From the NCBI RefSeq assembly GCF_016026235.1, contig NZ_CP065613.1: DNA of 64,000 nt; one strand, 5' to 3'. The DNA comes from Escherichia coli. GTDB lineage: Bacteria > Pseudomonadota > Gammaproteobacteria > Enterobacterales > Enterobacteriaceae. Below the pieces are notes generated by a model. It searched no databases and had not been told where the DNA came from. It was given only the letters and a program-made list of their open reading frames with translations. The translations under genes were made by a program, and so were the position numbers. This document shows, one piece after another, positions 1 to 57,745 of the stretch (positions are counted from its first letter, which is position 1; each line of letters begins with the position of its first letter).

Positions 1-1
1 C

Positions 2-768: not shown

Positions 769-787
769 TCAGGACAAAAGACACTGG

Positions 788-2049: not shown

Positions 2050-2072
2050 CCCGCCCACAAGGCGGTTTTTTG
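2050..2072 (+). terminator. Rho-independent terminator-like hairpin
   Basis: cccgcc / cacaa / ggcgg stem-loop followed by tttttt, downstream of the 1061..1903 gene. Confidence 0.5.
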
Positions 2073-2126
2073 CTTTTGGATCTGACAATAACCTTCACGA
2101 AAAAAATTAGCTTATAAAGTCTGGGG

Positions 2127-2160
2127 GAATTACTCTCGCCACGTTAACGAGAGTAATTTT
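2127..2160. terminator. hairpin downstream of gspM (candidate operon terminator)
   Basis: Inverted repeat aattactctcg / cgagagtaatt followed by tttt, located 3' of the gspM stop. Confidence 0.3.
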
Positions 2161-2183
2161 ATTGATATTAATCTCCTGATACT

Positions 2184-2720: not shown

Positions 2721-2721
2721 G

Positions 2722-4874: not shown

Positions 4875-4876
4875 GA

Positions 4877-5476
4877 TTATTGCGGCCCGCGTAACAACCA
4901 GATGCGTTCAATCTCGCCCCATTGCGGCGAATGCAGAGTCATGCGCACTGCCACAGGGATCGCCTGTACTGACGACCAGCTCTCCTGCCAGCGCGTACCA
5001 TCATAGAACTGCAAACGGAGCGAATCCGCCGGAATCAACTTTTGCATTGTCGGCTTCACGCTGCCTGCGGCATCGGTCAGCGGCCAGGCTAACCGTTCGA
5101 GATAACCGTCATGAATGCGGTAACCGACGGTGAGCAGATTGCTGCGTGGCAGACGCATCAACGGGTTAACCACACCGCCGCGCACAAAACGCATTCCTTC
5201 ACTCTCAGACGCCAGCACGCCAGCGCCAGCCAGTAAAGCTGGTTCACGCTGGCCCTGATCGCCTCTTACCGGACGCGGCATCATTTGGGTCAGATCGTGG
5301 GTCAGAAAACTCATCGTTTGCTGCATGAGGTTTAGTTTTTGATCGTGATCGGCGACGGCGCTATTCACGCGCGTGACGCCGTTAGTCACCTGCTGCGCCA
5401 TCAGTGCCAGCGAGGCAAAAATGGCAATTGCCACCAACATTTCCAGTAACGTGAAACCAGCGCGAGTCCTTCTCAC
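4877..5476 (-). CDS. gspJ: type II secretion system minor pseudopilin J
   Basis: N-terminus RAGFTLLEMLVAIAIFA is a prepilin-peptidase (type IV pilin-like) signal. Confidence 0.8.
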   Translation of the reverse strand: MRRTRAGFTLLEMLVAIAIFASLALMAQQVTNGVTRVNSAVADHDQKLNLMQQTMSFLTHDLTQMMPRPVRGDQGQREPALLAGAGVLASESEGMRFVRGGVVNPLMRLPRSNLLTVGYRIHDGYLERLAWPLTDAAGSVKPTMQKLIPADSLRLQFYDGTRWQESWSSVQAIPVAVRMTLHSPQWGEIERIWLLRGPQ

Positions 5477-5844
5477 TGTTGGCCTCCCACGGCGCTAAAC
5501 CAGGCGCGTCGTGACTGAATCACCGACGAAAAGTCTTCGTGACGGCTGACTTCAATATCCACCGCCTGGAGCAGCGCGTTGCCTGTATTCAATGGGATTG
5601 TTCGCCAGTACCAGCGGCTTCCTGCCATATCGCTCTCGCCCTGATGCCTGACCGCCCGCTGCTCACGGGTCATCAGGTAGAGCAGCGCAGTCTGGTTTTC
5701 AGCTACCCAGCCCGCTACCGTTTTTTCCTCAAGAACGTGCTGATTACTCAGCGCACCGCTGGCAATCTGTAACACCGCCGTGGCAGCCAGCGCAAAAATC
5801 GCCAGCGCGAGCATCACTTCCAGCAAGGTAAATCCGCGCTTCAT
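5473..5844 (-). CDS. gspI: type II secretion system minor pseudopilin I
   Basis: N-terminus MKRGFTLLEVMLALAIFA, prepilin-type leader; 123 aa. Confidence 0.8.
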   Translation of the reverse strand: MKRGFTLLEVMLALAIFALAATAVLQIASGALSNQHVLEEKTVAGWVAENQTALLYLMTREQRAVRHQGESDMAGSRWYWRTIPLNTGNALLQAVDIEVSRHEDFSSVIQSRRAWFSAVGGQQ

Positions 5845-6404
5845 GGCATCCTCTCATCACATTGATTGAGGGATAACGCGCCATCGTGTGCCAGTTTTAC
5901 CGCCCAACATGCGTTTTGCGCCGCCGAGTAGAAGCGCAGCGTAAACGGCGAGACGGGTTCAAAAGGCGAAAAACGGATCTGCGGCGTCTTCTTTTTCGCC
6001 TCTTTTTGCAGCTCCAGTTCAATATCGTGCAGCGTCAGGCGGCGACGTTGCAGCTCCAGCGCATATTCCTTCTGCCAGATATCACTTCCGGGTTGTAACA
6101 GCATCTGCACCTGTTTCGGCACCGTAACCTGTGCTGATAACCGGGTCGCAGAAACGGGCAACCACTGCCCCTGACGACGCTGCATAAACTGGTAGCCAGG
6201 CGGGTCGATTAGCACACCGAGTGTTTTCCCTTCGATCACTGCCCTGTCCTTAAACTGCGCAAAGCGAGTCAGAAAATCCTGCGCCGCTTTTTTCGCGGGC
6301 GATTCAGAATCGGTCGCAAAAGTCTGTACCACGCCCGCACTGGCAAGGCCGATAAGGAAAATCACCAGCATGATTTCCAGAAGTGTGAATCCGCGTTCAG
6401 GCAC
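5841..6404 (-). CDS. gspH: type II secretion system minor pseudopilin H
   Basis: N-terminus ERGFTLLEIMLVIFLIG, prepilin-type leader; 187 aa. Confidence 0.8.
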   Translation of the reverse strand: MPERGFTLLEIMLVIFLIGLASAGVVQTFATDSESPAKKAAQDFLTRFAQFKDRAVIEGKTLGVLIDPPGYQFMQRRQGQWLPVSATRLSAQVTVPKQVQMLLQPGSDIWQKEYALELQRRRLTLHDIELELQKEAKKKTPQIRFSPFEPVSPFTLRFYSAAQNACWAVKLAHDGALSLNQCDERMP

Positions 6405-6407
6405 TGC

Positions 6408-6863
6408 TTACTGAAACTCCTGCAAATTCCAGTTACCGATATCTGCGCCAGCGCCTTCCCCGTTTTCCTGACCATCCGCCCCCAGGGTATAAACATCAAA
6501 CAGCCCTTTTTCACCCGGACTGAGATACTGATAATCATTGCCCCACGGATCCTTTGGCAGTCGTTTAATGTATCCACCAGTACGGTAGTTGCGGGCGTCT
6601 GCCATATTGGCTGGCTGCTGGATCAGCGCCTCAAGCCCCTGCTCGGTAGTTGGATAACGCCCGTTATCCAGTCGGTACATATCCAGTGCGTTTTCCAGCG
6701 CCACGATATCGCTGATGGCTTTTTGCCGATCGGCTTTCTCTTTGTTGCCCAACAGGTTAGGCACCACCAGACTTGCCAGGACGCCAAGAATAACAATCAC
6801 CACCATCACTTCCAGCAGGGTAAAACCTGCCCGTGGTTTTTGTGTGCGGGATAACGAATTCAT
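6408..6863 (-). CDS. gspG: type II secretion system major pseudopilin G
   Basis: RAGFTLLEVMVVIVILGVLASLVVPNL prepilin leader with conserved Glu; start placed at the internal Met (track ORF extends to 6890). Confidence 0.8.
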   Translation of the reverse strand: MNSLSRTQKPRAGFTLLEVMVVIVILGVLASLVVPNLLGNKEKADRQKAISDIVALENALDMYRLDNGRYPTTEQGLEALIQQPANMADARNYRTGGYIKRLPKDPWGNDYQYLSPGEKGLFDVYTLGADGQENGEGAGADIGNWNLQEFQ

Positions 6864-6879
6864 GTGATAACTCCGTAAA

Positions 6880-8103
6880 TTACATTCCAACCATATTGTT
6901 CAGTTGCAGCATCGGCTCGAGGATGGCGATGACGATAAACAACACCACGCCCGCCATCATCACCACCAGCGCAGGCTCAAACAGCCCCAACGCCAGCCCC
7001 ACCTGGGTATCAAATTCCCGTTCCTGGTTAACAGCGGCCTGCTCAAGCATGGTTTCCAGTTCGCCGCTCTGTTCGCCGGAGGCGATCATGTACAGCATCA
7101 TCGGCGGGAACAGGCGCAACTCCGCCAGCGCGGCGCGCAGACTGCTTCCTTCGCGGACGCGATCTGCCGCCAGCAGTAGTTGTTGTTCGACATAGCGATT
7201 TGCCGACACAGCGGCAGCGGTCTGAATGCCTTCCAGTAGCGGAACACTGCTGGCGGTGAGGATGCTTAAGGTGCGGGAAAACCGCGCCGTATTCAGCCCG
7301 CGCGCAACACGCCCCGTCACAGGCAGGCGCAGCACGGTTTTGTCCCAGCGCAGGCGCATCGCAGGATTTTTAAGTAGCCGTTGCCCCAGCACCAGAAGCC
7401 CCAGCAAACCCGCCAGCCAGTAAACGCCGCTGGCCTGTAACGCGTCGCTCATGGCAATAAGCGTGCGGGTTGAGGCGGGTAGCGCGTGTCCGAGATGATC
7501 AAACTGTTCGATGATTTTCGGCACCACTGCCGTCAGCAAAATAGTGACTACGCCCGTTGCCACCACCAGCAGAACCAGCGGATAGAGCATGGCCTGCAAT
7601 AGACGTGATTTCAGGCGCTGTCGCTGTTCGGTGTAATCTGCCAGGCGATTGAGCACCACGTCGAGATGCCCAGATTTTTCTCCGGCAGCAACCATCGAAC
7701 AAAACAGAGAATCAAAGACGCGGGGATGTTCGCGCAGGCTGTCCGACAGGGTGTAACCTTCCTGAATCCGGCTGCGCAGCGCCATTCCGAGGCTTTTTAC
7801 ATGCAGTTTTTCACTTTGCTCACTGACCGCCTGTAAGCAGGTTTCCAGCGGCATTGCTGCCTGTACCAGCGTTGCCAGTTGGCGCGTGAACAGCGCAAGA
7901 TCTGCCGCCGCCACGCGACGATGTGCGTGCCGCCGACGCTGCAACATCCCCCCTGACGAAGTATTCATCCGGGCTTCAATATGCACGGGGATAAGCTCTT
8001 TACCGCGCAACAACTGGCGGGCATGACGCGCGGAATCCGCCTCAATCATACCTTTGGTTTTGCGACCATTACGCTCCAGCGCCTGATAGTAAAACAGTGC
8101 CAT
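6880..8103 (-). CDS. gspF: type II secretion system inner-membrane platform protein F
   Basis: 407-aa polytopic membrane protein in the canonical position between gspE and gspG. Confidence 0.8.
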   Translation of the reverse strand: MALFYYQALERNGRKTKGMIEADSARHARQLLRGKELIPVHIEARMNTSSGGMLQRRRHAHRRVAAADLALFTRQLATLVQAAMPLETCLQAVSEQSEKLHVKSLGMALRSRIQEGYTLSDSLREHPRVFDSLFCSMVAAGEKSGHLDVVLNRLADYTEQRQRLKSRLLQAMLYPLVLLVVATGVVTILLTAVVPKIIEQFDHLGHALPASTRTLIAMSDALQASGVYWLAGLLGLLVLGQRLLKNPAMRLRWDKTVLRLPVTGRVARGLNTARFSRTLSILTASSVPLLEGIQTAAAVSANRYVEQQLLLAADRVREGSSLRAALAELRLFPPMMLYMIASGEQSGELETMLEQAAVNQEREFDTQVGLALGLFEPALVVMMAGVVLFIVIAILEPMLQLNNMVGM

Positions 8104-9596
8104 TACGCCTCCATGGTTACCCGCAGAACTTCATCGAGAGAGGTTTCTCCGGCGAGCACTTTCTCAATGCCGTTGCTGCGGATACCCGCAGAGTGTTGTC
8201 GGACATAACGTTCCAGCTCCAGCTCCCCGGCCTGACGGTGGATCAAATCACGCAATGTGGCATCCACCACGATCAGCTCATGGATGGCAGTCCGTCCGCG
8301 AAAACCTTTGTGATTACAGGCGGGACAGCCCTGTGGATGGTACAGAGTGACGGTACGGGCGTCGGTAATTCCCAGCAGGCGTTTTTCTTCGTCAGTGGCT
8401 GGTGCGGGCTGGCGGCAGTCGGGACACAGCGTGCGAACCAGTCGCTGCGCCATCACGCCCGTCAGACTGGAAGAGAGCAGGAAAGGCTCCACGCCCATAT
8501 CCTGCAAACGTGTGATCGCCCCCACCGCTGTGTTGGTATGCAGCGTGGAAAGGACCAGGTGTCCGGTAAGTGAAGCCTGGACGGCGATTTCTGCGGTTTC
8601 GGTATCGCGGATTTCACCGACCATCACCACATCTGGGTCCTGACGCAAAATCGCGCGCAGCCCACGGGCAAAGGTCATGCCGACGCGGGTGTTAACCTGC
8701 GTCTGACCGATCCCTTCAATCATGTATTCGATGGGATCTTCAACCGTGAGAATGTTGCGCGAATGGTTGTTCAGCTCCTGCAATCCGGCGTACAGCGTGG
8801 TGCTTTTGCCGGAACCCGTCGGCCCCGTCACCAGAAAGATGCCGTGCGGTTTGTGTAACAGCTGGCGCAACTGCGCGGTCAGTTGCTGGCTAAGCCCCAG
8901 ACGCTCCAGCGTCAGGCGGGCCTGGTTTTTGTCCAGCAGTCGCAGCACCACGCGCTCGCCCCAGGCAGAAGGCATGGTGGAGACACGCACGTCAATCGCC
9001 CGGCCGCCCAGCAACAGCGCAATACGTCCATCCTGCGGCACGCGCTTTTCGGCAATGTCCAGCCGCGCCATCACCTTGATACGCGATACCAGCAGCGAGG
9101 CCAGTTTGCGCCCCGGGCGCAGCATTTCATGTAATGTGCCGTCAACACGAAAACGGATCACCAGACTCTTTTCAAATGTCTCGATGTGAATATCCGAAGC
9201 GCCTTCTTTAATCGCCTCTGCCAGCATAGCGTTGATCAGTTTGATGATTGGCGCGTCGTCGTCGCTTTCCAGCAGATCTTCCGTTTCCGGCAGTTCTTCG
9301 GCGAGGGTAAAAAAATCCTCAGCAGAACCGAGATCTTCCATCAACTGGCGAGCTTCGGAAGAGTCCCGCTGCCAGACCGCATTCAGCCGCTGTTCAAATT
9401 CGGCCTCGTCGATTTGCCGCAGCGTAAAGGGCGCGTTCAGCCCCCGCTGCAGCTCCTGCAAAACAGAGAGCGATAGCGGATGAACGTGGAGGATCTCCAG
9501 CGACGCTTCGCACCATGCCACCAGGCTAAACCGACGGCTGAAACTGTAGGGCAGACGCACGGTGTTGGCGGTGGTTTCCTGTGCTACAGGCACCAT
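8103..9596 (-). CDS. gspE: type II secretion system ATPase E
   Basis: Walker [10 protein letters not shown] and a C-terminal CPDC...CPAC tetracysteine motif; 497 aa. Confidence 0.85.
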
Positions 9597-30283: not shown

Positions 30284-32005
30284 ATGTCTAATAAAATCTT
30301 TACGCATTCCCTACCTATGCGCTATGCCGATTTTCCAACGCTGGTTGATGCTTTGGACTACGCCGCTCTGAGTAGCGCCGGAATGAATTTTTATGACAGA
30401 CGTTGCCAACTTGAAGATCAACTGGAATATCAGACGTTAAAAACGCGTGCCGAAGCTGGTGCGAAGCGGTTGTTATCGCTGAACCTGAAAAAAGGCGAAC
30501 GCGTGGCGCTGATTGCCGAAACGAGTAGCGGGTTCGTAGAGGCTTTTTTTGCCTGTCAGTATGCTGGCTTAGTCGCCGTCCCGTTGGCGATTCCAATGGG
30601 CGTCGGTCAGCGGGATTCCTGGAGCGCCAAACTCCAGGGTTTACTGGCAAGTTGCCAGCCCGCAGCCATTATCACTGGTGATGAGTGGTTGCCACTGGTC
30701 AATGCCGCGACGCATAACAACCCCGAATTACATGTTTTAAGCCACGCCTGGTTTAAGGCATTACCGGAAGCCGATGTTGCGCTCCAGCGTCCAGTTCCGA
30801 ACGATATCGCCTACCTCCAGTACACCTCCGGCAGCACCCGTTTTCCCCGTGGCGTCATTATCACCCATCGCGAAGTGATGGCTAATCTACGTGCTATAAG
30901 CCACGATGGCATTAAATTACGCCCTGGCGACCGCTGCGTCTCCTGGCTGCCTTTCTACCATGATATGGGACTGGTCGGCTTTCTCCTGACCCCCGTCGCC
31001 ACGCAACTTTCAGTAGATTATTTGCGCACTCAGGATTTTGCCATGCGTCCTTTGCAATGGCTTAAATTGATCAGTAAAAATCGCGGCACCATTTCCGTTG
31101 CGCCGCCGTTTGGCTATGAATTGTGCCAGCGCCGCGTGAATGAAAAAGATCTCGCTGAACTGGATCTTTCCTGCTGGCGCGTCGCTGGTATTGGTGCAGA
31201 ACCCATCTCCGCAGAACAACTCCATCAATTCGCTGAATGTTTCCGTCAGGTTAACTTTGACAATAAAACTTTCATGCCGTGCTACGGACTGGCAGAAAAT
31301 GCGCTGGCTGTCAGCTTCTCTGATGAAGCCTCCGGGGTTGTGGTTAACGAAGTGGATCGCGACATCCTCGAATATCAGGGTAAAGCCGTCGCGCCGGGTG
31401 CAGAGACACGCGCCGTATCGACTTTCGTCAACTGCGGCAAAGCGTTGCCGGAACATGGTATTGAAATCCGCAATGAAGCAGGTATGCCGGTCGCGGAACG
31501 TGTGGTAGGCCATATTTGCATCTCCGGTCCCAGTCTGATGAGCGGTTACTTTGGCGACCAGGCTTCGCAAGACGAGATTGCCGCGACGGGCTGGTTAGAC
31601 ACCGGCGACCTCGGTTATCTGCTGGACGGTTATCTGTATGTCACCGGACGCATTAAAGATCTGATTATTATTCGTGGCCGTAATATCTGGCCGCAGGATA
31701 TTGAATATATTGCGGAACAGGAACCGGAAATTCATTCTGGCGATGCGATTGCTTTTGTTACCGCCCAGGAAAAAATCATTTTGCAGATCCAGTGTCGGAT
31801 CAGCGATGAAGAACGTCGCGGACAGCTTATCCACGCGCTGGCAGCACGGATCCAAAGCGAATTTGGCGTAACAGCGGCTATCGATCTGTTGCCGCCCCAC
31901 AGCATTCCCCGAACGTCCTCCGGCAAGCCTGCCCGTGCGGAAGCGAAAAAACGTTATCAGAAGGCTTATGCTGCAAGCCTTCATGTGCAGGAATCCCTGG
32001 CATGA
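30284..32005 (+). CDS. fatty-acyl-AMP ligase / acyl-ACP synthetase-like adenylating enzyme
   Basis: Adenylation motifs YLQYTSGSTRFPRGV and GWLDTGDLGYL; about 573 aa from the internal ATG (track ORF starts at TTG 30257). Confidence 0.75.
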   Translation: MSNKIFTHSLPMRYADFPTLVDALDYAALSSAGMNFYDRRCQLEDQLEYQTLKTRAEAGAKRLLSLNLKKGERVALIAETSSGFVEAFFACQYAGLVAVPLAIPMGVGQRDSWSAKLQGLLASCQPAAIITGDEWLPLVNAATHNNPELHVLSHAWFKALPEADVALQRPVPNDIAYLQYTSGSTRFPRGVIITHREVMANLRAISHDGIKLRPGDRCVSWLPFYHDMGLVGFLLTPVATQLSVDYLRTQDFAMRPLQWLKLISKNRGTISVAPPFGYELCQRRVNEKDLAELDLSCWRVAGIGAEPISAEQLHQFAECFRQVNFDNKTFMPCYGLAENALAVSFSDEASGVVVNEVDRDILEYQGKAVAPGAETRAVSTFVNCGKALPEHGIEIRNEAGMPVAERVVGHICISGPSLMSGYFGDQASQDEIAATGWLDTGDLGYLLDGYLYVTGRIKDLIIIRGRNIWPQDIEYIAEQEPEIHSGDAIAFVTAQEKIILQIQCRISDEERRGQLIHALAARIQSEFGVTAAIDLLPPHSIPRTSSGKPARAEAKKRYQKAYAASLHVQESLA

Positions 32006-32916
32006 ATCAAACTGTCGCGGTGACGGGCGCTACCGGTTTTATCGGTAAATATATTATCGATAACCTGCTCGCCCGCGGCTTTCACGTTCGCGCATTGACG
32101 CGTACTGCCCGCGCTCACGTCAATGACAATCTCACCTGGGTGCGCGGTTCGCTGGAAGATACTCATTCACTTAGCGAACTGGTTGCCGGAGCCAGTGCGG
32201 TGGTCCATTGCGCTGGGCAAGTGCGCGGACACAAAGAAGAGATTTTTACCCACTGTAACGTTGACGGCAGCCTGCACCTGATGCAAGCGGCAAAAGAGAG
32301 CGGCTTTTGCCAACGTTTTCTGTTTATCTCTTCGCTGGCGGCGCGCCATCCCGAGCTCTCCTGGTACGCAAATTCCAAACACGTCGCCGAACAACGGCTG
32401 ACTGCAATGGCTGACGAAATTACGCTGGGCGTTTTTCGCCCGACAGCCGTGTATGGTCCCGGCGATAAAGAGTTAAAACCGCTGTTTGACTGGATGCTGC
32501 GCGGCCTGCTGCCACGACTTGGTGCACCAGATACACAGCTCTCTTTCCTGCACGTCACCGATTTTGCGCAAGCAGTGGGTCAGTGGTTAAGCGCCGAAAC
32601 TGTACAGACGCAAACCTATGAATTATGCGATGGCGTCGCTGGCGGCTATGACTGGCAACGCATACAGCAACTTGCCGCCAACGTCCGTTGCGGTTCCGTG
32701 CGAATGGTTGGTATTCCTCTGCCGGTACTCACCTGCCTTGCGGATATCAGTACCGCGTTGAGTCGCCTGGCAGGTAAAGAACCTATGCTGACCCGCTCGA
32801 AAATTCGTGAATTAACCCACGCCGACTGGTCGGCAAGTAATAACCGTATTTCTGAAGATATTAATTGGTTTCCCGGGATTAGCCTGGAACACGCATTACG
32901 CAACGGGCTATTTTGA
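32002..32916 (+). CDS. NAD(P)-dependent epimerase/dehydratase-family (extended SDR) reductase
   Basis: N-terminal Rossmann motif VAVTGATGFIGKYI; start overlaps the upstream stop by 4 nt. Confidence 0.7.
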   Translation: MNQTVAVTGATGFIGKYIIDNLLARGFHVRALTRTARAHVNDNLTWVRGSLEDTHSLSELVAGASAVVHCAGQVRGHKEEIFTHCNVDGSLHLMQAAKESGFCQRFLFISSLAARHPELSWYANSKHVAEQRLTAMADEITLGVFRPTAVYGPGDKELKPLFDWMLRGLLPRLGAPDTQLSFLHVTDFAQAVGQWLSAETVQTQTYELCDGVAGGYDWQRIQQLAANVRCGSVRMVGIPLPVLTCLADISTALSRLAGKEPMLTRSKIRELTHADWSASNNRISEDINWFPGISLEHALRNGLF

Positions 32917-32947
32917 TTGTCTTGTTTAAAGGTGTGTTAACGTTTCT

Positions 32948-33196
32948 ATGGTAAATCGTGAAATAGTAATGGATTACATCCTTTCCTGTTTACAGGATTT
33001 GGTCGAAAACGGTGTGGAAATTAAGCCCGACAGCGATCTCGTCAACGATCTTGGCCTGGAGTCGATCAAAGTGATGGATCTCTTAATGATGCTGGAAGAC
33101 AGATTCGATATTTCCATTCCTATTAATATTCTGCTGGATGTCAAAACCCCTGCGCAATTAATGGAAACTCTACTTCCATGGCTGGAGAATAAATAA
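32948..33196 (+). CDS. acyl carrier protein
   Basis: 82 aa with the phosphopantetheine-attachment signature DLGLESIKVMDL. Confidence 0.7.
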   Translation: MVNREIVMDYILSCLQDLVENGVEIKPDSDLVNDLGLESIKVMDLLMMLEDRFDISIPINILLDVKTPAQLMETLLPWLENK

Positions 33197-34368
33197 TGGG
33201 GCTATACGATAAATATGCGCGCCTTGCTGGCGAGCGACTGCAATTTAGTGACAACGGGTTAACACCGTTTGGCACCTGTATTGATGAAGTGTATTCCGCC
33301 ACCGAAGGCCGGATCGGCAATAAAAAAGTGATTCTGGCCGGGACCAATAATTATCTCGGTTTAACCTTTAATCATGATGCCATCAGCGAAGGTCAGGCAG
33401 CGTTAGCGGCCCAAGGCACCGGCACCACCGGTTCTCGTATGGCAAACGGCAGTTATGCGCCGCACCTGGCGTTAGAGAAAGAGATTGCCGAGTTTTTCAA
33501 TCGCCCTACCGCTATCGTTTTTTCAACCGGTTATACCGCTAATTTAGGCGTCATCAGCGCACTTGCCGACCATAACGCCGTGGTGTTACTGGATGCCGAC
33601 AGCCACGCCAGTATTTATGACGCCTGTTCTCTCGGTGGCGCGGAAATTATTCGTTTCCGCCATAACGATGCTAAAGATCTGGAACGGCGCATGGTTCGCC
33701 TCGGTGAACGGGCGAAAGAGGCGATTATCATCGTTGAGGGCATCTACAGCATGCTCGGTGACGTTGCGCCGCTGGCGGAAATTGTTGATATCAAACGTCG
33801 TCTCGGTGGTTATTTGATTGTCGATGAAGCGCATTCGTTTGGCGTGTTAGGCGCAACAGGGCGCGGACTGGCTGAAGCTGTCGGCGTTGAAGATGATGTG
33901 GATATTATCGTTGGTACTTTCAGTAAAAGTCTGGCCTCGATTGGCGGTTTTGCTGTCGGTTCGGAAGCGATGGAAGTGCTGCGCTACGGCAGCCGCCCGT
34001 ATATTTTTACCGCCTCTCCTTCTCCGTCCTGCATTGCGACCGTGCGCTCGTCGTTAAGAACTATTGCCACACAACCAGAGCTGCGGCAAAAGCTGATGGA
34101 TAACGCCAACCATCTGTATGACGGTCTGCAAAAACTGGGTTATGAGTTAAGTTCACATATTAGCCCGGTAGTGCCAGTAATAATCGGTTCGAAAGAGGAA
34201 GGTTTACGCATCTGGCGCGAGCTTATCTCGCTGGGCGTGTATGTGAATCTTATCCTGCCGCCTGCCGCGCCTGCAGGCATCACGCTGCTGCGCTGTAGCG
34301 TAAATGCTGCCCACAGTCGTGAGCAAATCGATGCCATCATTCAGGCATTTGCTACTCTGAAGCAGTAA
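33196..34368 (+). CDS. PLP-dependent alpha-oxoamine synthase (BioF/Kbl/serine palmitoyltransferase family)
   Basis: 390 aa with the conserved PLP-lysine context GTFSKSLASIGGF and a DEAHSFG motif; start overlaps the ACP stop by 1 nt. Confidence 0.75.
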   Translation: MGLYDKYARLAGERLQFSDNGLTPFGTCIDEVYSATEGRIGNKKVILAGTNNYLGLTFNHDAISEGQAALAAQGTGTTGSRMANGSYAPHLALEKEIAEFFNRPTAIVFSTGYTANLGVISALADHNAVVLLDADSHASIYDACSLGGAEIIRFRHNDAKDLERRMVRLGERAKEAIIIVEGIYSMLGDVAPLAEIVDIKRRLGGYLIVDEAHSFGVLGATGRGLAEAVGVEDDVDIIVGTFSKSLASIGGFAVGSEAMEVLRYGSRPYIFTASPSPSCIATVRSSLRTIATQPELRQKLMDNANHLYDGLQKLGYELSSHISPVVPVIIGSKEEGLRIWRELISLGVYVNLILPPAAPAGITLLRCSVNAAHSREQIDAIIQAFATLKQ

Positions 34369-34373
34369 TGTGA

Positions 34374-34406
34374 GCCCGCCGTGGTGTTTGCGCCACGGCG
34401 GGTTTA
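34374..34406. terminator. bidirectional terminator hairpin between convergent operons
   Basis: cccgccgtggtg / tttg / cgccacggcggg perfect stem followed by ttt, between the AOS stop and the convergent permease gene. Confidence 0.55.
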
Positions 34407-35483
34407 ATGTTGTCTGTCATACCAATACACCAGGCTCAACGCCACCAACACAAACGCTACCGGTAAACCGAGCGCGGTAACAGGTGCGCTTAACGCAAAT
34501 AGCAATCCCAGATTAACCATGATTTGATAGCTGATCCAGGTGAGTAAGCCCACGATGACGCCTACAGCGAGACGGCTACCCATCCCAGGCGAACGCGGGG
34601 CAGTAAAGGTAAACGGCACAGCCAGCAAAATCATCGCCAGGGTCAGGATGGGTTGCCCCAGTTTTTCCCACAGTGCAAGGCGGTATTCGCTGCTGGGTTG
34701 CCCGGTTTCCTGCAAATAATGGATGTAATGATTAAGCTGACGGACAGAAAAAGTATTCCCCGGCATTGATAACTCTTCAAGATTCATACTGGTGAAGGCC
34801 GATTGCCAGGCAAGATTATCTAATGTTTCCAGCGTTTCTTTGCCATTCAGCCATTTTTTATGATTCACACCATGCAGGACCCACGTTTTGTCGTCTTTAA
34901 TGGTGGCACTGCGTGCATAAATGTAGGATTCAAGCGAGAGATCGTCGGGATAATGAAATATCTCCACGCCCACCGGCTGGCCCTGCTCGTTCAGCGATTT
35001 CACCGTCACAAATTCATTACCACGCCTGGCCCACAGCATATTGCCGGTAATGTCATCGTCCTCCCCCAACGCGGTGGCGGTCGATTTGATTTGCAGCGCC
35101 TGTTGCTGCAATGGCGACGCCACCCACTCATCTATCGCGCCTAACGAAACAGTCCACAATATCCCGGCAACCAGCGCCACCAGTGCAATACGGAAGATAG
35201 AAAACCCCGTGCTGCGAATGGCGGTAAGCTCACTGTTTTTCGATAACTGCCCCAGGCCAACAATCCCTCCCAATAAGGCGATAAACGGCGAAAGTTCGAC
35301 CAGTGTGCGCGGTAAGGTCATTAGCACCACCAGCACCGCCTGAGTCCAGCGATAACCGCCCGGGCTGACATCATCCAGTTCGTTAATCAGGTTGAAGGTG
35401 GTAAAAAGCGGCAGCAATAGCCCTGCGGCGGCGGCAAAACCGAGAAAGAGATGACGGATTAAATAGCGACTGAAAACATTCAT
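34404..35483 (-). CDS. LptG-like permease (YjgP/YjgQ family), paralog
   Basis: Start at MNVFSRYLIRHLF gives a 4-nt ATGA overlap with the upstream gene; six predicted TM segments around a large periplasmic loop. Confidence 0.6.
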   Translation of the reverse strand: MNVFSRYLIRHLFLGFAAAAGLLLPLFTTFNLINELDDVSPGGYRWTQAVLVVLMTLPRTLVELSPFIALLGGIVGLGQLSKNSELTAIRSTGFSIFRIALVALVAGILWTVSLGAIDEWVASPLQQQALQIKSTATALGEDDDITGNMLWARRGNEFVTVKSLNEQGQPVGVEIFHYPDDLSLESYIYARSATIKDDKTWVLHGVNHKKWLNGKETLETLDNLAWQSAFTSMNLEELSMPGNTFSVRQLNHYIHYLQETGQPSSEYRLALWEKLGQPILTLAMILLAVPFTFTAPRSPGMGSRLAVGVIVGLLTWISYQIMVNLGLLFALSAPVTALGLPVAFVLVALSLVYWYDRQH

Positions 35484-36550
35484 CGGGAAAATTTCTGCAG
35501 CAAAGAGAAGTCGCGTGCGACCAGCATCAGCAGGCCCATTAGCATGAGTCCGGGTACTAACCACAAACCAGGAATGAGGGGAATCGCGCCGTTAGCCACC
35601 AGCGTACGGCAGACGTCGCCGCCATAAAAAATGGCAATAAACAGCAACGTCAGTGGCAATAATGTTGAAAATCGCCCTTGCCGCGGTTTTACCCGACTTA
35701 ATGAAATGGCCAGCAGCGCCATCAACAATGCTGTCAGGCCACGGCTTTGCCGCCATTGCAGTTCGGCATGATCGGCAGGAAATACAGAGCGTGCCAGCTC
35801 CGTGACCGATTTTGCTTTGCGTTTGACGTTAGGGCTTTGATCCAGCGGATTCAGATGTAATTGCAGATTACGGTAGATCTGTTCATTGTCGTCACGCCCC
35901 TGATGATCGAGAAGATAGGCAGTGCCGTTGTGCAACATAACGGTCGGTTTCTCGGGTGATGGGTCAACCACATCAACCGAACGGGCGCGGAAAATGCGGG
36001 TTCGATTGGCAGTAGAAGTATAAATCAGCGCGTCAGTCAGGCGATTATTATCCTGATCAACCGTCTGCGAAAGGATCATTCGTCCGTTATCGTTAGTGTT
36101 AAATTTCTTTGCCCGCAACTGGCGAACATCCAGCTCCGACTGCGACTGCTGCTCCAGTTGATAAATCTGCGCATAAGCCCACGGACGACCATACATCGAC
36201 AGAAGGGTGACAAAAATACTTAGCGGTATCGCCAGATAAAGAACGGCTTTGTACAAGCGTCCCGGACTGCCCCCCGCCGCAGAGATAGCGGTAATTTCCG
36301 AGTCGGTATACATCTGCCCTAGCGTCACGCCAACTGACACATACAGACCAACAGGTAACAACATCTCCAGTGCAATCAGCACTTTGTAGAAAACGATATC
36401 CAGCACAACATCAAGAGCTAATGTCCCATTTGCCGCTTCGGTCAGATAACGCTGTGCGGAGTAGCTGGCGAAAATAAAGATCAGAAAACCGACGATAATC
36501 AGCACCAGACGGCGCGTACCACGCATGATGTAGTGTTCAACCAGCTTCAT
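35480..36550 (-). CDS. LptF-like permease (YjgP/YjgQ family), paralog
   Basis: 356 aa with the same architecture as the neighbour; TM1-loop region GQMYTDSEITAISAAG resembles recalled LptF (YTESEITVMHACG). Confidence 0.6.
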   Translation of the reverse strand: MKLVEHYIMRGTRRLVLIIVGFLIFIFASYSAQRYLTEAANGTLALDVVLDIVFYKVLIALEMLLPVGLYVSVGVTLGQMYTDSEITAISAAGGSPGRLYKAVLYLAIPLSIFVTLLSMYGRPWAYAQIYQLEQQSQSELDVRQLRAKKFNTNDNGRMILSQTVDQDNNRLTDALIYTSTANRTRIFRARSVDVVDPSPEKPTVMLHNGTAYLLDHQGRDDNEQIYRNLQLHLNPLDQSPNVKRKAKSVTELARSVFPADHAELQWRQSRGLTALLMALLAISLSRVKPRQGRFSTLLPLTLLFIAIFYGGDVCRTLVANGAIPLIPGLWLVPGLMLMGLLMLVARDFSLLQKFSR

Positions 36551-36580
36551 CTCACTAACGCCCTCAATCCTTTGAATTTT

Positions 36581-37144
36581 TTATTCATTGATCAGTTTCT
36601 GCGCCAGCGCAATGACATGATCTACCTCTTCCGGCGTCAGGCTGCCGTCCTTTGCCCACTGAATTTGCCCGGTTTTATTCAGCACCAGAATGGTTGAACT
36701 CTGCTCCGGCAAGCGCCAGGCAACGCGTCCCTGTCCATTGCCGTCAATAACGAATTGCGCCCACGGATAGCGGCGTTTATTTTTTTCGATTTTGCCAACG
36801 ACAAAATAGCCAGTACCAAAGATGGCATCATCAGTGTTCACAATGGTGGTGGGCTGAAAACGATCCTGTGGAAAGTTTGCCGCTTCAACCGCTTTAATTA
36901 ACAGTGAGTTCTTCTTCTTCGCTGACTTACGCCCGGCGATATACTGGATAATGCGGACTTTTCCCGCCAATTGTGTGCTGTTCCACTTTTGGTAGTGAAT
37001 TTCGTCGTCGCTATTCAGAAGCAGCTCGCCGCCTTCCTGAATATAAACAGGGGTAACCGTTTTGCCAGTGACGAAATTGTGTGCCTGCACACCCGGGGCT
37101 AAGAGCATGATAATCAGCGCAATAATCAAACGAGATGACATCAT
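36581..37144 (-). CDS. periplasmic protein with signal peptide (YtfJ-like)
   Basis: Signal peptide MMSSRLIIALIIMLLAPGVQA; resemblance to YtfJ is from memory only. Confidence 0.45.
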   Translation of the reverse strand: MMSSRLIIALIIMLLAPGVQAHNFVTGKTVTPVYIQEGGELLLNSDDEIHYQKWNSTQLAGKVRIIQYIAGRKSAKKKNSLLIKAVEAANFPQDRFQPTTIVNTDDAIFGTGYFVVGKIEKNKRRYPWAQFVIDGNGQGRVAWRLPEQSSTILVLNKTGQIQWAKDGSLTPEEVDHVIALAQKLINE

Positions 37145-37152
37145 TGCTCCGG

Positions 37153-37977
37153 TTATAGCGGAAAACGCGAAATCAGCAGCTCTAAGCGCTGGCGAATATC
37201 GCTATCCAGCGCCACCGGTGCATCATACGACTGGCGGTTTTCCATATCATCCGCCACCATGTCGTCGTGTTTATCCCCCATCAGGCCATTAATGGCGGCG
37301 AGGAAACGGGAAATCTGTAACGCCTCTTTATTTTCAGGATCAAGCGATCTTAAGGTGTCGTAATAAGAAACCTGCTGGCTGATGATTTTTCGCACATCAT
37401 GAAATTCCCTGCCGGTTAGTCGCGGTTTGGCAATTATCTCTTTCAGGGCATGCATTTGCTTTTGCCGATAGGCAATAAAACCGCTTACGCTTTCTAACTG
37501 GCTATGGCGTAATGAATAGTTCACCAACGACCAGACCGGAGAGCTTAAATAAATTCGTAACAGGTTGCCGTAATACGACACAATATTTTTCTTACCGTTA
37601 CGAAATCCGTCCTGAAAACGTCCCAGAAAAACGGTCGTTTTGCCGAATAAAAATCTGGCCTGATGCTTTTTTAAATACAGCCGTTGTGCAAAACGTAGAT
37701 GCTTGTAGCGCGCTCGCATGTATTTAAACTGTTTACGCTCGTCTGTCGTCAGCTCATCGCCTTTGGCTTGTTTGCGAATTAAACGAAGTAATTCCTGACG
37801 ATCAACGCCATTGAGCCAGAATTGCAGGCATAACGCGTAATTATCATGGATGATTTCGGTGGTACAACATAGTGCGATAGTCGGCGGCAAACTGACCTGG
37901 GCATCAACAACATCATCTTCCTCAATCGCAACAAATAGATGCTCGCTCGCCTCAAGCGGGAAATATTTTCTCATCAT
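37153..37977 (-). CDS. hypothetical cytoplasmic protein (274 aa)
   Basis: ORF whose start overlaps the flippase stop by 1 nt; no recognisable motif. Confidence 0.45.
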   Translation of the reverse strand: MMRKYFPLEASEHLFVAIEEDDVVDAQVSLPPTIALCCTTEIIHDNYALCLQFWLNGVDRQELLRLIRKQAKGDELTTDERKQFKYMRARYKHLRFAQRLYLKKHQARFLFGKTTVFLGRFQDGFRNGKKNIVSYYGNLLRIYLSSPVWSLVNYSLRHSQLESVSGFIAYRQKQMHALKEIIAKPRLTGREFHDVRKIISQQVSYYDTLRSLDPENKEALQISRFLAAINGLMGDKHDDMVADDMENRQSYDAPVALDSDIRQRLELLISRFPL

Positions 37978-39326
37978 CAGGATTTCTCTCCGGCTGCGTT
38001 ATAAAGCAAGGAATGGCGCTGAAAAAAAGCCTTTAAGATCGGAATTAGCGAAAGCACCACATCCAGACATTGACCGCCGAAATAAGCAAACGCTGCTCCC
38101 AGCACGCCAAACAGATGACAGAACATGAACAGCAATACGATGTAGCCGATTGAGGCGATGGTTTGCGCCACGAGAAAAGCGCGCTGTTTTCCCGCCATCA
38201 ATAGCAATGACTCCTGAGGGAAGCCCAGCATCGAGATCACAATTGCGCCCAGCATCACCTGAATCAGGTCATACGCTTCGAGATACTTAACGCCAAACAC
38301 CAGCGAAATGAGCGGCTTGCCGACGATCAACACCGCGAGCGCCACCAGAATACCGATTCCGCCCGCCAGTAAACCGGACTTCACACCTAACAACCACGGT
38401 CTGGTGGTGCGCGGATCTAAACGCATCACCTCTGGGTAAAAACTTTTACCCAGCAAACCCGCTGGCGTTCCGGCGGCGTCGAAGAATGTCATGGCGATTT
38501 TAAATAACCCGGCGACAGCGGGTCCTAACACGATCCCCACCAACACTGTGCTGCACGAGTTACGCGCCGACCAGATGGAGTGGGCAATGTTGGTTGACCA
38601 GACAAAACTCCACGCGCCTTTAATGTGTCGGGCAGACTCAAACAGATTCAATTTGAAGGCGTTATGGATATTTCTGCGGCGTAATTCGCGCGCGGCAAAC
38701 CACCAGTACATGGTGCCGCCAACCAGATTCGACACGTACCAGGCAATAACAAAACCCGCAAAACCAAAGTCAAAATACCAGGCTGCGACGCTCCCCGCTG
38801 CGCGCAGAAAAGGTTTCGTCGCCTGCTGTACAGCAATCAAATCAAAGCGATCTACCGCACGCAGAATGCCGGTCGGCGTGGAGGAAGCCATTGAAGGAAT
38901 GAGCGTGCAATACAGCGCTGCCAGCCAAAAGCTTTGGTCATCCAGACCTAATGAATGGGAAAGAAAAGGGAGTAAGGCAATGCCGCCGACAATCGCCACC
39001 GCGCCGCTGACGATATCCAGCGAGAAGGAAAATGAGACGACATTGCGAAATTGCTGCGGATTATTGTTGGTTAATGCTGGTGTTCCGTACTGAACCACCA
39101 GCTGCCATGTCTGAAACTTAATAAAATCGCTGATCGACTTGGCGTACGATTGCACAATCACCAGTACGCCAAACATGGCGGGCGTCATCCCTTTACCGGC
39201 ACACGAGAGCGCCAACAGACCCAGCAAGGCGCTCACGACATTACTGGAGCCTAACCAGGCGCTATTGCGAATAATGGTGCGAAACGCGCCATCTGCAAAC
39301 CAATGTTTGATGTTAAAACCCGCCAA
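37977..39326 (-). CDS. yghQ: MOP-superfamily (Wzx-like) polysaccharide/lipid flippase
   Basis: 449-aa protein with about 12 hydrophobic segments. Confidence 0.65.
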   Translation of the reverse strand: MAGFNIKHWFADGAFRTIIRNSAWLGSSNVVSALLGLLALSCAGKGMTPAMFGVLVIVQSYAKSISDFIKFQTWQLVVQYGTPALTNNNPQQFRNVVSFSFSLDIVSGAVAIVGGIALLPFLSHSLGLDDQSFWLAALYCTLIPSMASSTPTGILRAVDRFDLIAVQQATKPFLRAAGSVAAWYFDFGFAGFVIAWYVSNLVGGTMYWWFAARELRRRNIHNAFKLNLFESARHIKGAWSFVWSTNIAHSIWSARNSCSTVLVGIVLGPAVAGLFKIAMTFFDAAGTPAGLLGKSFYPEVMRLDPRTTRPWLLGVKSGLLAGGIGILVALAVLIVGKPLISLVFGVKYLEAYDLIQVMLGAIVISMLGFPQESLLLMAGKQRAFLVAQTIASIGYIVLLFMFCHLFGVLGAAFAYFGGQCLDVVLSLIPILKAFFQRHSLLYNAAGEKS

Positions 39327-39371
39327 TTCAGCCTGACCTTATCGTTGATAGTAAAAAGTATCCCGCCAGCC

Positions 39372-40130
39372 TTAAGTTAAACTTCGGCGGTCAGAAACGA
39401 TGGCAACCAGAGAAACCGCCTTCTGTGCCTGTTCCAGCACTTCGCTGTAGGGCGCTCTGGAATCAATCTCAAGAATTTTTGTGCCGTTATAGCCAATCGT
39501 CGACATAACACTGATTTTGTCCTGCAGCTCGGCATAGTCATGGTCAGGCTTGCGGGAGATGGCAGTCTCAATATCAATGCCCAGGCGAATAATTAATTCC
39601 GGGCGATATTGCGCCATTTGTTGGTATAAACGCCGTTCGCGCTGCGCCAGAAACATGCTGATTTTCCCGGTCGCACGTTCGACGCCAATCCCCGGTCCGT
39701 CATAATAAAAGCCCGAAATTTCAGCCTGCGGGAAGCGATCGCTGACCACCAGAACGCCACTTTGCGCCAGTCGCTGAACCTTGCGTAGATTCGCCATTCT
39801 TCGCAGCGAGAAGCAGTACATAATCACCGCCGCCCATAGCGCCGGAGATTTGGTTTTCATGCTTTGGGTTTTCGAGGATTTGGCCGCCAGTCGCCGTTCC
39901 AGCCAGACGCCAACCAACGGCAATCGTTTGATTTTGTCGCCGTCTTCGCCGGAGAGCAGCCCCAAATAGCGGCGCTCGGTTTGCCAGTGTTGTTGCAGCG
40001 ATTTCACCAGGTCGGTGGTCAGTGTGGATTTACCGGTGCCATCACACCCGACCACCGCAATCAGCCCCGGAATGTAGTTGGGCTGCGGCGCGGTTGTACT
40101 AATAACAGTTTGTGTTTGTAGTGCATCCAT
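39372..40130 (-). CDS. yghR: P-loop NTPase, kinase-like
   Basis: Walker A VGCDGTGKST; shares DRFPQ and SRKPDH motifs with two neighbouring paralogs. Confidence 0.65.
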   Translation of the reverse strand: MDALQTQTVISTTAPQPNYIPGLIAVVGCDGTGKSTLTTDLVKSLQQHWQTERRYLGLLSGEDGDKIKRLPLVGVWLERRLAAKSSKTQSMKTKSPALWAAVIMYCFSLRRMANLRKVQRLAQSGVLVVSDRFPQAEISGFYYDGPGIGVERATGKISMFLAQRERRLYQQMAQYRPELIIRLGIDIETAISRKPDHDYAELQDKISVMSTIGYNGTKILEIDSRAPYSEVLEQAQKAVSLVAIVSDRRSLT

Positions 40131-40161
40131 TCGTTAAATCATCCCCTATCCATTTTGGTGA

Positions 40162-52072: not shown

Positions 52073-53191
52073 TTATTCTCCCCGTGAGTCAGCTTTATCT
52101 TTCTTTTGCTGACGACCCAGTTCACGCACCGCCATCACGCTGACACCGGCAACCAGCCCAACCACACCGCCGAGCAAACCAATAGCGCCTGCAGAGACGT
52201 TGCCGCCCTCTTTAGCGTTAACATCCGGTTTCTGTGAACGCGGAGTCTGATTTTCGACGTTGGCAAGCTGATGGATGCCTTTATGGAAGCCGATACCTTC
52301 TTCGTTACAGCCATAGCACGGGTGACCAATTGCCACCGGCCACACGCCGCCAACGTCGCAGAATTGCAGCGTTGAGCAGTTGCCGTAAGTTTCTGGCCCT
52401 TTACAGCCGAGGTGGTACAAGCACCAGCCTTCGCGGTGGCCTTCATCACCGAACTCTTTGGCAAAACGACCAGCATCGAAGTGCGGGCGACGTTCGCAGT
52501 GTTCGTGAATCAGACGGCCATAGGCGAAGGTCGGACGGTTTTTGTCATCCAGTTTCGGCGGTTTGCCGTAAGTGATGATGTGCGCAACGGTCGCGAGGAA
52601 GTTGTGCGGGTTCGGCGGGCAGCCCGGAATGTTGATAACGGTTTTGCCTGGCAGAACTTCTTGCAGGCTGACTGCGCCAGTTGGGTTAACTCCAGCTGCG
52701 GCAACACCGCCCCACGCAGAGCAGGAACCGATAGCGATAATGGCTGCTGCGCCTTCCGCCGCTTTGCGGATGTGATCCACAATCGGCTCACCGGCAACCA
52801 TGCAATAAATACCGTTATCTTTTAATGGGATGGAACCATCCACCACTAACACATACTGCCCTTTGTACTTCTCGAGAGCGTTATGTTTGTTCTCTTCGAC
52901 CTGATGACCGAAGGCGGCGGAAAGCACTTCGTGATACTCCAGAGAGATAGTCTCCAGCACGAGGTTTTCTACCGTTGGATGCGTTGCACGAAGCAGAGAT
53001 TCCGTACAACCGGTGCACTCCTGCGCGCCAATCCAGATAACTGGCGGACGCTGCGGGTTAGTAACCGATTCGGCCATCTCAGCAGCGGCTTTGCTACTTA
53101 ACCCCATGGTGGCGGCTAATGCTGCACAAAGCTTCATGAAATCACGACGGTTAATGCCGTGAGAATGGATGAGGGTGTTATCTCCAGTCAT
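52073..53191 (-). CDS. hybO: [NiFe] hydrogenase-2 small subunit
   Basis: Twin-arginine signal [15 protein letters not shown]; 372 aa. Confidence 0.9.
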
Positions 53192-53379: not shown

Positions 53380-53667
53380 TCAATTTTCGAGGCGATAACC
53401 GGCCATAAAAAAGCGCAACGTAGAACAGGAATTATTCTCACGAAAGAAATCCATTACCATCTCTTTATCCAGTCCATAGCGGCGCGTCAGAATACCCGCT
53501 TCCCAGGCGCTAAGCTGGCGATCTCCGGTCTTTTCGTACATCCGGTGTGAGTAGCCTAATACAAAACCGCGTTTATAATCGGCACAGAATTTTGTCACAT
53601 TAACCGCACTGTCGGCATGCGTTGCTTTTAATCCCGCCATTAAGCCTTTACCAAAATGGTTATTCAT
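53380..53667 (-). CDS. yghW: small uncharacterised protein YghW
   Basis: 95-aa ORF upstream of the hyb operon. Confidence 0.65.
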
Positions 53668-53785
53668 CGTTCACCTCATTCGCTATATATCGTCATATAT
53701 AGCGATATTTTAGGCAAAGAACGACTTTTGCGCACGCTATTTTTTCATGCTTGTTTAAGACGTAATCCCGTAAGAGATAAACCTA

Positions 53786-54673
53786 TCAGGAGAGATATTT
53801 ATCGAACCATTTCAGTGTCCTTTGCCAGGCAAGATCGGCGGCAGATTTGTCATAACGGGGCGTGGAATCATTATGGAATCCGTGATTAACCCCCGGATAG
53901 ATATACGCCTCATAAACCTTATTATTGGCTTTCAACGCCGCCTCGTAAGCAGGCCAGCCCTCGTTGATTCGGGTGTCCAGTTCCGCGAAGTGGAGTAGTA
54001 AAGGCGCTTCAATCTTCGCCACATCGGCAGTGGGTGCCTGGCGACCATAAAACGGCACCGCGCAGGCCAGTTCCGGATACGCGACAGCCGCCGCGTTCGA
54101 TACGCCACCGCCATAGCAAAATCCGGTAATACCCACTTTGCCTGTCGCTTGCGGATAGCGTTGCATAAACTCAATTGCGGCAAAGAAATCATTCATCAGT
54201 TTGGTTGGATCAACCTGCTGTTGCAGCTCACGACCTTTATCATCATTTCCCGGATAACCTCCAACGGAACTTAAGCCGTCAGGTGCCAGGGCGATATACC
54301 CCGCCTTCGCCACTCGCCGTGCCACATCTTCGATATACGGATTCAGTCCACGATTCTCATGCACCACCACCACGGCTGGCGTTTTGCCGCTCATTTTTGC
54401 GGGTTTCACCAGATAACCCCGTACCTCGCCGTGACCATTTGGCGAAGGATACGTGATGTACTCAGCAACAATCTCCGGGTCGGTAAACTCTACCTGAGTC
54501 GCCAGCGCATAATTTGGCTTGAGCAAATCAAACAACGCTAATGCCGTCATCCCGCCCACCGCATACTTCGCCGCAAGGTTGAGGAACTCACGTTTCGAGA
54601 TTTTCCCGTGAGCGTAATAGTCGTAGTAATCCAACAACTCTTGTGGGAAATCTTTGGCGGTTAAACGCGGCAT
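53786..54673 (-). CDS. yghX: dienelactone hydrolase-family protein, apparently intact
   Basis: GFCYGG nucleophile-elbow motif and an uninterrupted reading frame; start placed at MPRLTAKDF. Confidence 0.7.
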   Translation of the reverse strand: MPRLTAKDFPQELLDYYDYYAHGKISKREFLNLAAKYAVGGMTALALFDLLKPNYALATQVEFTDPEIVAEYITYPSPNGHGEVRGYLVKPAKMSGKTPAVVVVHENRGLNPYIEDVARRVAKAGYIALAPDGLSSVGGYPGNDDKGRELQQQVDPTKLMNDFFAAIEFMQRYPQATGKVGITGFCYGGGVSNAAAVAYPELACAVPFYGRQAPTADVAKIEAPLLLHFAELDTRINEGWPAYEAALKANNKVYEAYIYPGVNHGFHNDSTPRYDKSAADLAWQRTLKWFDKYLS

Positions 54674-54829
54674 CGTTGCACTCCTCAACTGGTGTTTTTT
54701 TAAGCAAAGCATAAGCACGTGTTTTCGCCCAGTTTTTCGTCACTCTGTGAGCCAGACTACGGGATACGCGCTGGCGAATCGCTAAACTAGAAACATTGTT
54801 TCGAAATTGAACGGTGGAAAGGAGAGGTC

Positions 54830-56594: not shown

Positions 56595-57479
56595 ATGTCT
56601 CATTTAAAAGACCCGACCACGCAGTATTACACTGGTGAATATCCCAAACAGAAACAACCGACGCCAGGCATCCAGGCGAAGATGACACCGGTACCGGATT
56701 GCGGCGAGAAAACCTATGTTGGTAGCGGTCGCCTGAAAGATCGTAAAGCACTGGTGACAGGGGGCGATTCCGGAATAGGTCGCGCTGCCGCCATCGCTTA
56801 CGCGCGTGAAGGGGCTGACGTGGCGATCAGTTATCTTCCCGTGGAAGAAGAAGACGCTCAGGATGTGAAAAAGATCATTGAAGAATGCGGTCGCAAAGCC
56901 GTTCTGCTGCCAGGCGATTTAAGCGATGAGAAGTTTGCCCGTTCGTTGGTTCACGAAGCGCATAAGGCGTTAGGCGGGCTGGATATTATGGCGCTGGTCG
57001 CCGGGAAACAGGTTGCCATTCCTGATATTGCAGACCTCACCAGCGAACAGTTTCAAAAGACCTTTGCCATTAACGTTTTCGCGCTGTTCTGGCTAACCCA
57101 GGAAGCGATCCCCCTGCTACCGAAAGGTGCAAGTATCATCACCACTTCGTCAATCCAGGCATACCAGCCAAGTCCGCATTTACTGGACTATGCGGCTACG
57201 AAGGCGGCGATTCTGAACTACAGCCGTGGCCTGGCAAAACAGGTCGCGGAGAAAGGTATTCGGGTGAATATTGTCGCGCCAGGCCCTATCTGGACGGCAC
57301 TACAAATTTCCGGCGGACAAACGCAGGATAAGATCCCGCAGTTTGGTCAGAAAACGCCGATGAAGCGTGCGGGGCAACCGGCGGAACTGGCCCCAGTATA
57401 TGTTTATCTGGCAAGTCAGGAGTCGAGCTACGTCACCGCAGAAGTGCACGGTGTGTGCGGCGGCGAGCATTTAGGTTAA
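56595..57479 (+). CDS. yghA: short-chain dehydrogenase/reductase
   Basis: Glycine-rich cofactor motif [12 protein letters not shown]; 294 aa. Confidence 0.85.
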
Positions 57480-57510: not shown

Positions 57511-57534
57511 TCATTGTGAATTCACTCTTACCTG

Positions 57535-57745
57535 ATGTGGCGAAAACGCCTTATCCGCCTACAAACGCATGAAGATTCAACATGTTGCAATAGATTTTGT
57601 AGGCCTGATAAGCGTAGCGCATCAGGCATTGAGCACCTAATGCCGGATGCGGCGTGAACGCCTTATCCGGCCTACAAACGCACGAAGATTCAACATGTTG
57701 CAATAGATTTTGTAGGCCTGATGAGCGTAACGCATCAGGCAATTC
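57535..57745. repeat. REP/BIME array with two copies of an 85-bp composite unit
   Basis: cgccttatccggcctacaaacgca.gaagattcaacatgttgcaatagattttgtaggcctgat.agcgta.cgcatcaggc occurs twice, flanking a canonical REP (tgccggatgcggcgtgaacgccttatccggcctac). Confidence 0.85.

Follow-up and report, generated by a model that had tools for sequence, protein, structure and literature searches.

The window, by which is meant the whole 64,000-nucleotide stretch of Escherichia coli DNA that was analysed, carries on its minus strand an uninterrupted reading frame for the gene yghX. From the ORF listing and a reading of the sequence, this frame corresponds exactly to an ATG-to-stop coding sequence of 888 nt (Table 1), and its DNA is identical to the RefSeq-annotated yghX of strain FDAARGOS_943 (WP_001137768.1). 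It is adjoined on the same strand by yghW and hybO. An earlier note on this DNA had described here a continuous frame of the dienelactone hydrolase (DLH) family with a GFCYGG motif, and such a frame is indeed present. The protein matches two profiles, each over its whole length and far above chance level. Its residues 84-294 match the Pfam DLH profile PF01738 (217 positions; 164.8 bits, cutoff 21, E-value 2.7e-48), and the NCBIfam profile NF041440 'YghX family hydrolase' is matched over its 292 positions (587.3 bits, cutoff 460, E-value 4.6e-177).

The mechanical ORF of yghX extends further upstream to a GTG codon at position 54718, giving 310 amino acids. However, the ATG at 54671-54673 is to be preferred as the start, as it is preceded by a Shine-Dalgarno sequence, is the start used by RefSeq in the identical FDAARGOS_943 allele, is the same Met with which homologues from other genera begin and is also the start of YqhI, a small protein which has been detected in K-12.

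Table 1. Features of yghX and its adjoining genes in the window.
Feature	Position	Strand	Basis or remark
hybO	52073-53191	-	adjoins yghX with yghW
yghW	53380-53667	-	adjoins yghX with hybO
yghX CDS, intact	53786-54673	-	295 codons and TGA stop; ORF listing, NF041440 match
Shine-Dalgarno GAGGAG	54681-54686	-	7 nt upstream of the ATG; read from the sequence
N-terminal export-signal-like region, codons 1-58	54500-54673	-	Pfam PF23678 match, alignment of relatives
K27 codon of S-K-R-E-F-L	54593-54595	-	
R28 codon of S-K-R-E-F-L	54590-54592	-	
Codon 37 (TAT), site of the K-12 2-bp deletion	54563-54565	-	TA or AT missing; alignment with K-12
Catalytic alpha/beta-hydrolase (DLH) domain, codons 59-295	53789-54499	-	PF01738 match to residues 84-294; likeness to 4ZV9
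CC of codon 157 (ACC), site of the K-12 1-bp deletion	54204-54205	-	one C missing; alignment with K-12
GFCYGG nucleophile motif, residues 184-189	54107-54124	-	catalytic Cys186 at 54116-54118
Asp233 codon, triad acid	53975-53977	-	aligns with ClcD Asp171
His264 codon, triad base	53882-53884	-	aligns with ClcD His202

The spacer between yghX and yghW also contains a perfect AT-rich palindrome with 11-bp arms, TCGCTATATAT-CGTC-ATATATAGCGA (positions 53680-53705), which lies approximately 13 nt upstream of the yghW start. With the gene strand showing no T-run after it, the palindrome resembles an operator more than a terminator.

In silico analysis indicates that YghX has the fold and the active site of the DLH family. 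The AlphaFold model of the window protein (mean pLDDT 95.6, pTM 0.92) displays the alpha/beta-hydrolase fold, superimposing on the crystal structure 4ZV9 with a TM-score of 0.98 (rmsd 1.1 Å) and on PDB 1DIN with a TM-score of 0.84. The former, 'EcoDLH', is the YghX of E. coli O157:H7 Sakai, that is the same gene, with a protein approximately 98% identical and two substitutions over residues 59-294. Residues 1-59, although encoded by the window gene, are missing from the construct that was crystallised, and there is otherwise no substantive difference. The latter is ClcD, a Pseudomonas dienelactone hydrolase (carboxymethylenebutenolidase, EC 3.1.1.45), which shares the fold but is only about 25% identical to YghX and has no N-terminal extension. 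YghX possesses a nucleophile Cys in a G-x-C-x-G-G elbow together with an Asp and a His, the arrangement by which the family is recognised; these residues (Cys186, Asp233 and His264) align with ClcD residues 123, 171 and 202, which we take to be the catalytic triad of that enzyme. Among 30 relatives, down to 35% identity, Asp233 is invariant, while Cys186 and His264 are each conserved in at least 90%.

With regard to substrate, ClcD is part of a chlorocatechol pathway, whereas no genes of such a pathway flank yghX, and YghX is unlikely to have dienelactone as its natural substrate. The literature found on its activity is limited to a report that the purified E. coli protein has no phosphotriesterase activity and that its active-site Cys is oxidised or modified in the crystal (bioRxiv 10.1101/2025.10.30.685675); no natural substrate or enzymatic activity was described there or elsewhere in that literature. 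The gene neighbourhoods of three distant homologues (P0122, P0126 and P0140) were also considered as a clue to function and were set aside, these being on short contigs with no shared neighbours.

The earlier note gave yghX as broken in K-12, which proved correct. In the genome of K-12 MG1655 (NC_000913.3), positions 3146856-3147691 are annotated as the pseudogene yghX (b4658), the 5′ end of which is overlapped by a CDS of its own for 47 amino acids, yqhI (b4755). The locus, formerly annotated as yghX/yghY fragments, occupies the same place as in the window, between gpr and yghW and upstream of hyb. Pairwise alignment of the two, the check which that note had proposed, gave nine substitutions and two frame-shifting deletions in K-12, one of 2 bp at codon 37 and one of 1 bp at codon 157, so that K-12 does not have the same intact frame. 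The 2-bp deletion shifts the frame into a stop at codon 48, and the 1-bp deletion brings it back into register, so that the stretch between them is read in the wrong frame and holds many stops. When the three bases are re-inserted in silico, the K-12 protein becomes identical to that of the window, all nine substitutions being synonymous. The loss in K-12 is therefore a recent one, and the window retains the ancestral state.

As to the order of events, K-12 lost the gene through the 2-bp deletion at codon 37, with the 1-bp deletion probably following in an already dead yghX. Strain H1827/12 (L004 428-1313) argues for this order, as it has the K-12 haplotype with the 2-bp deletion only and hence represents an intermediate allele. 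That the window carries the intact and ancestral form of a gene for a DLH-family YghX hydrolase, lost from K-12 by these deletions, can be regarded as almost certain.

The yghX locus was found in 5,425 of 5,426 complete E. coli genomes, in which the junctions of the deletions were counted by exact matches only. The K-12 type of the 2-bp-deletion junction (80 nt) occurs in 1,247 genomes and the same junction with one extra SNP (strain 550 type) in a further 254, so that on this exact-match basis the 2-bp lesion is present in at least 1,501 of the 5,426 genomes (at least 27.7%), with approximately 72% being without it. Exact matches to the 1-bp-deletion junction number 1,197 (22.1%) and those to the intact allele at that site 3,186; by subtraction, some 300 complete genomes have the 2-bp deletion only. 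Intact yghX is the majority as well as the ancestral state in E. coli, with the broken haplotype making up about a quarter. Carriers of the deletions extend beyond laboratory K-12 to many isolates from cattle, rivers, poultry and patients, and RefSeq flags their broken copies as 'frameshifted'. The possibility that the lesion is a trait of the whole K-12-related strain group was rejected, the BL21(DE3) copy being intact. The intact gene is already known, being routinely annotated by RefSeq (with the K-12 copy marked as a pseudogene) and represented by the crystal structure 4ZV9.

The gene is also under purifying selection, judging from its pattern of substitution. Comparison of the window gene with a divergent intact allele gave 15 synonymous and two non-synonymous codon differences, and the protein is 85-92% identical in Citrobacter, Pseudescherichia, Enterobacter, Kosakonia, and Leclercia. 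This bears on the question of whether yghX, with its frame intact, could nevertheless be silent or already non-functional in this strain and in the course of decay. Such decay would agree with there being no substrate or phenotype on record for YghX, with the loss of the gene without obvious cost in approximately 28% of sequenced E. coli and with its use as a neutral integration site in K-12 derivatives. However, it sits poorly with substitutions that are mostly synonymous (15 against two in the above comparison, and nine against none with K-12), with a triad in which every residue is intact and with the level of protein conservation across enterobacterial genera. In addition, the same promoter and ribosome-binding region yields detectable YqhI in K-12, this protein being made from the same start as yghX and having been detected by epitope tagging (PMC6001520). 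Decay is considered very improbable. From the intact triad, the purifying selection and the translated start we infer that the YghX of the window is functional.

The earlier note went on to suggest that this strain keeps a functional hydrolase beside the hydrogenase operon. The gene is intact and adjacent to hyb, as was stated; its function is inferred as above, and the observation is not a new one. No functional link between yghX and the hyb operon was found in the analysis.

YqhI of K-12 (47 amino acids, MPRLTAKDFPQELLDYYDYYAHGKISKREFLNLAAKCGRRDDGISVV) consists of YghX residues 1-36 followed by 11 out-of-frame residues, its gene (L001 4598-4741) being equivalent to positions 54566-54673 of the window plus a frameshifted tail. 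It is the only product of the K-12 locus, in contrast to the full YghX of 295 amino acids encoded in the window. YqhI is the translated stump of a broken yghX and does not come from an independent small-protein gene, and any function sought for its product should be judged with this origin in mind.

The 'pseudogene yghX' is a widely used neutral chromosomal integration site in K-12 derivatives, appearing in many engineering papers. In one case a gene was inserted at 'the pseudogene yghX locus' of BL21(DE3) (PMC12617950). In that strain yghX is intact (888 nt; L014 4291-5178, NC_012971.2 3014290-3015177) and is not flagged as a pseudogene, its product differing from that of the window by two amino acids, and the insertion therefore disrupts an intact gene. 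The label of pseudogene does not transfer from K-12 to other hosts.

The part of YghX that is not represented in the crystal structure is its N-terminus, which reads MPRLTAKDFPQELLDYYDYYAHGKISKREFLNLAAKYAVGGMTALALFDLLKPNYALA and then TQ. It contains in order a helix (LLDYYDYYAH), the motif S-K-R-E-F-L, a hydrophobic stretch and an A-L-A directly before T59, and its residues 1-36 are covered by the Pfam domain 'YqhI-like' (PF23678). Tat signal peptides have the consensus S-R-R-x-F-L-K (PMC7317946), of which the S-K-R-E-F-L of YghX has only the second Arg of the pair. YghX resembles these peptides in a weakly hydrophobic stretch rich in Gly, Ala, and Thr, and in having a basic K52, a proline and an A-x-A. 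The h-region, NLAAKYAVGGMTALALFDLL, has a mean hydropathy of 1.16 with an uncharged core of only 12 residues between K36 and D49, and it is followed by KPNYALA before TQ; the weakly hydrophobic h-region and A-x-A c-region of a Tat signal are thus both found. Unlike the consensus, the first Arg is replaced by Lys in Enterobacteriaceae, and upstream of the motif there is a conserved and confidently modelled helix.

The N-terminal extension is present in 78 of 150 cluster representatives. At the motif position, 65 of the 78 have RRxF(L/I/M), nine have KR and four have neither; the E. coli sequence is KREFL, and KR was found in all enterobacterial sequences examined. In the alignment of relatives R28 is invariant, position 27 is Arg in at least 90% and a conserved A-x-A column precedes the catalytic domain. 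Across relatives the hydrophobic stretch keeps its composition (Ala, Gly, Ser, Thr, and Leu) and not its sequence, and insertions fall exactly after the A-x-A column. In several relatives this stretch ends in a lipobox (LAAC), which is followed by an Ala/Thr/Pro-rich linker of 20-95 residues before the catalytic domain, while others have a short canonical Tat signal in place of the YghX N-terminal region. Variation of this kind is typical of an export signal and not of a packed domain. With the TIGR01409 TAT_signal_seq profile (cutoff 16.7), relative P0156 passes (17.4) and P0128 is just below (16.4), and the window N-terminus gave no match at E-values up to 1.

Taken together, these features suggest that YghX is probably an exported periplasmic hydrolase with a Tat-type signal, the front part of which is unusually conserved and structured, and this is the reading we favour, with moderate confidence. 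It would draw on the twin Arg found in most relatives, the invariant R28 and the conserved A-x-A column, on the lipobox with linker or canonical Tat signal that replaces the region in some relatives, on the TIGR01409 scores of P0156 and P0128 and on the crystallised soluble protein being without residues 1-59. Residues 1-58 would accordingly represent a Tat-type export signal with Lys-Arg for Arg-Arg in Enterobacteriaceae, which would be cut after Ala-Leu-Ala58, and the mature enzyme would act in the periplasm, where its Cys would attack an ester, lactone or thioester substrate. For the E. coli protein, the points against export by Tat are its KR motif, its failure to match TIGR01409 and the confident helices in its residues 1-60, together with the shortness of its uncharged core.

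The structural model of this region was not as expected. A floppy signal peptide had been anticipated in the full-length AlphaFold model; instead, residues 1-60 are modelled with a pLDDT of 90-93 as helices at 11-21, 27-37, 44-51, and 55-58, the two most confident of which are spanned by YqhI. Residues 1-68 folded alone again gave the first three helices (pLDDT 82.9, with residues 11-30 at 93-94), and the confidence of the model therefore comes from the segment itself. If the model is correct, such helices would not be usual in a signal peptide that is to be discarded. The YDxYxH helix, which lies upstream of the motif, is kept in 60 of 74 relatives, a conservation which is likewise unusual for the n-region of a signal peptide.

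These helices, in a full-length model with a pTM of 0.92, together with the conservation of the one upstream of the motif, the KR motif itself and the lack of a TIGR01409 match, would fit a cytoplasmic YghX in which the first 58 or so residues form a folded helical domain (serving, for example, as a lid, in dimerisation or in binding a partner) and the Arg pair is structural. This would not explain why relatives should show a lipobox and linker or a short canonical Tat signal in this region, why insertions sit exactly after the A-x-A column or why only the composition of the hydrophobic stretch is conserved, and residues 1-59 are not needed by the catalytic domain for its stability or crystallisation. 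A cytoplasmic location is considered unlikely, though it is the stronger of the alternatives to Tat export.

It may also be that YghX is exported or anchored by other means than Tat, being either Sec-routed or held by an uncleaved N-terminal membrane anchor. The KR in every enterobacterial sequence examined would agree with this, as would the report that Lys substitutions are poorly tolerated by Tat (PMC7317946). Nevertheless, with a hydropathy of approximately 1.2 and the charged residues K36 and D49, the h-region would make a weak anchor or Sec signal. The c-region has in K52 a basic residue of the Sec-avoidance kind, and a natural KR Tat signal is reportedly found in Salmonella TtrB, both of which also count against this reading. 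A route of this type is regarded as improbable, and less likely than the cytoplasmic location.

Returning to Tat export, YghX-like proteins were not mentioned in the literature on dienelactone hydrolase with twin-arginine, nor in a survey of P. aeruginosa Tat substrates. Substrate lists were built on K-12, in which yghX is broken, and the protein could have been overlooked for this reason. The prospects are about even that YghX is such an overlooked Tat substrate with a natural Lys-Arg motif, that PF23678 is a conserved structured extension of its Tat signal and that YqhI is merely what is translated of this broken signal peptide. If so, the PF23678 module would travel with the RR motif across distant lineages, lipoprotein versions included, which would suggest a dedicated role for the extension, examples being self-masking or the docking of a chaperone ahead of export. 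As a lead, possible export of YghX by Tat is a modest one, and it is the sole point here with some novelty. On the whole, an intact ancestral yghX, its loss from K-12 and a proposed exported enzyme very probably form the best explanation of the locus.

A number of other features were observed in the window. Its closest complete genome is that of FDAARGOS_943, which is 99.9% identical over positions 2014-64000. That strain has a Mu-like prophage of approximately 34 kb in sslE, at a site corresponding to positions 18451-18454 of the window (L008 13817 / L015 15613). The window is without this prophage, and its sslE is therefore not interrupted there. The first 18 kb, for which the best collinear match was 95.5% identical, had been considered as a divergent recombinant block; this was rejected, as identity to FDAARGOS_943 is 99.93% over positions 2014-18454 when the prophage is left out. 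Positions 1-2013 have no match in FDAARGOS_943, the match ending inside the tRNA-Phe gene of that strain. No complete tRNA was detected by ARAGORN in positions 1-3000, and the ORFs in positions 1-2013 (162 and 280 amino acids) resemble the distal part of a genomic island associated with tRNA-Phe.

The stretch between yghO and yghS, at approximately 30300-40150, has the appearance of an island for the synthesis and export of lipids. Its gene content, read across from the annotation of FDAARGOS_943, includes genes coding for spt (serine palmitoyltransferase), an acyl carrier protein, a fatty acyl-AMP ligase, an epimerase/dehydratase, second copies of lptF and lptG, a YtfJ-family protein and an 'LPS biosynthesis' protein. 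The gene yghA (56595-57479, plus strand) has an intact frame of 294 amino acids in the window; in the otherwise near-identical FDAARGOS_943 it is marked by RefSeq as a pseudogene with an internal stop. Finally, between yghA and exbD (positions 57534-57741) there are two adjacent copies of an element of approximately 96 nt, about 93% alike, which look like REP-type repeats.
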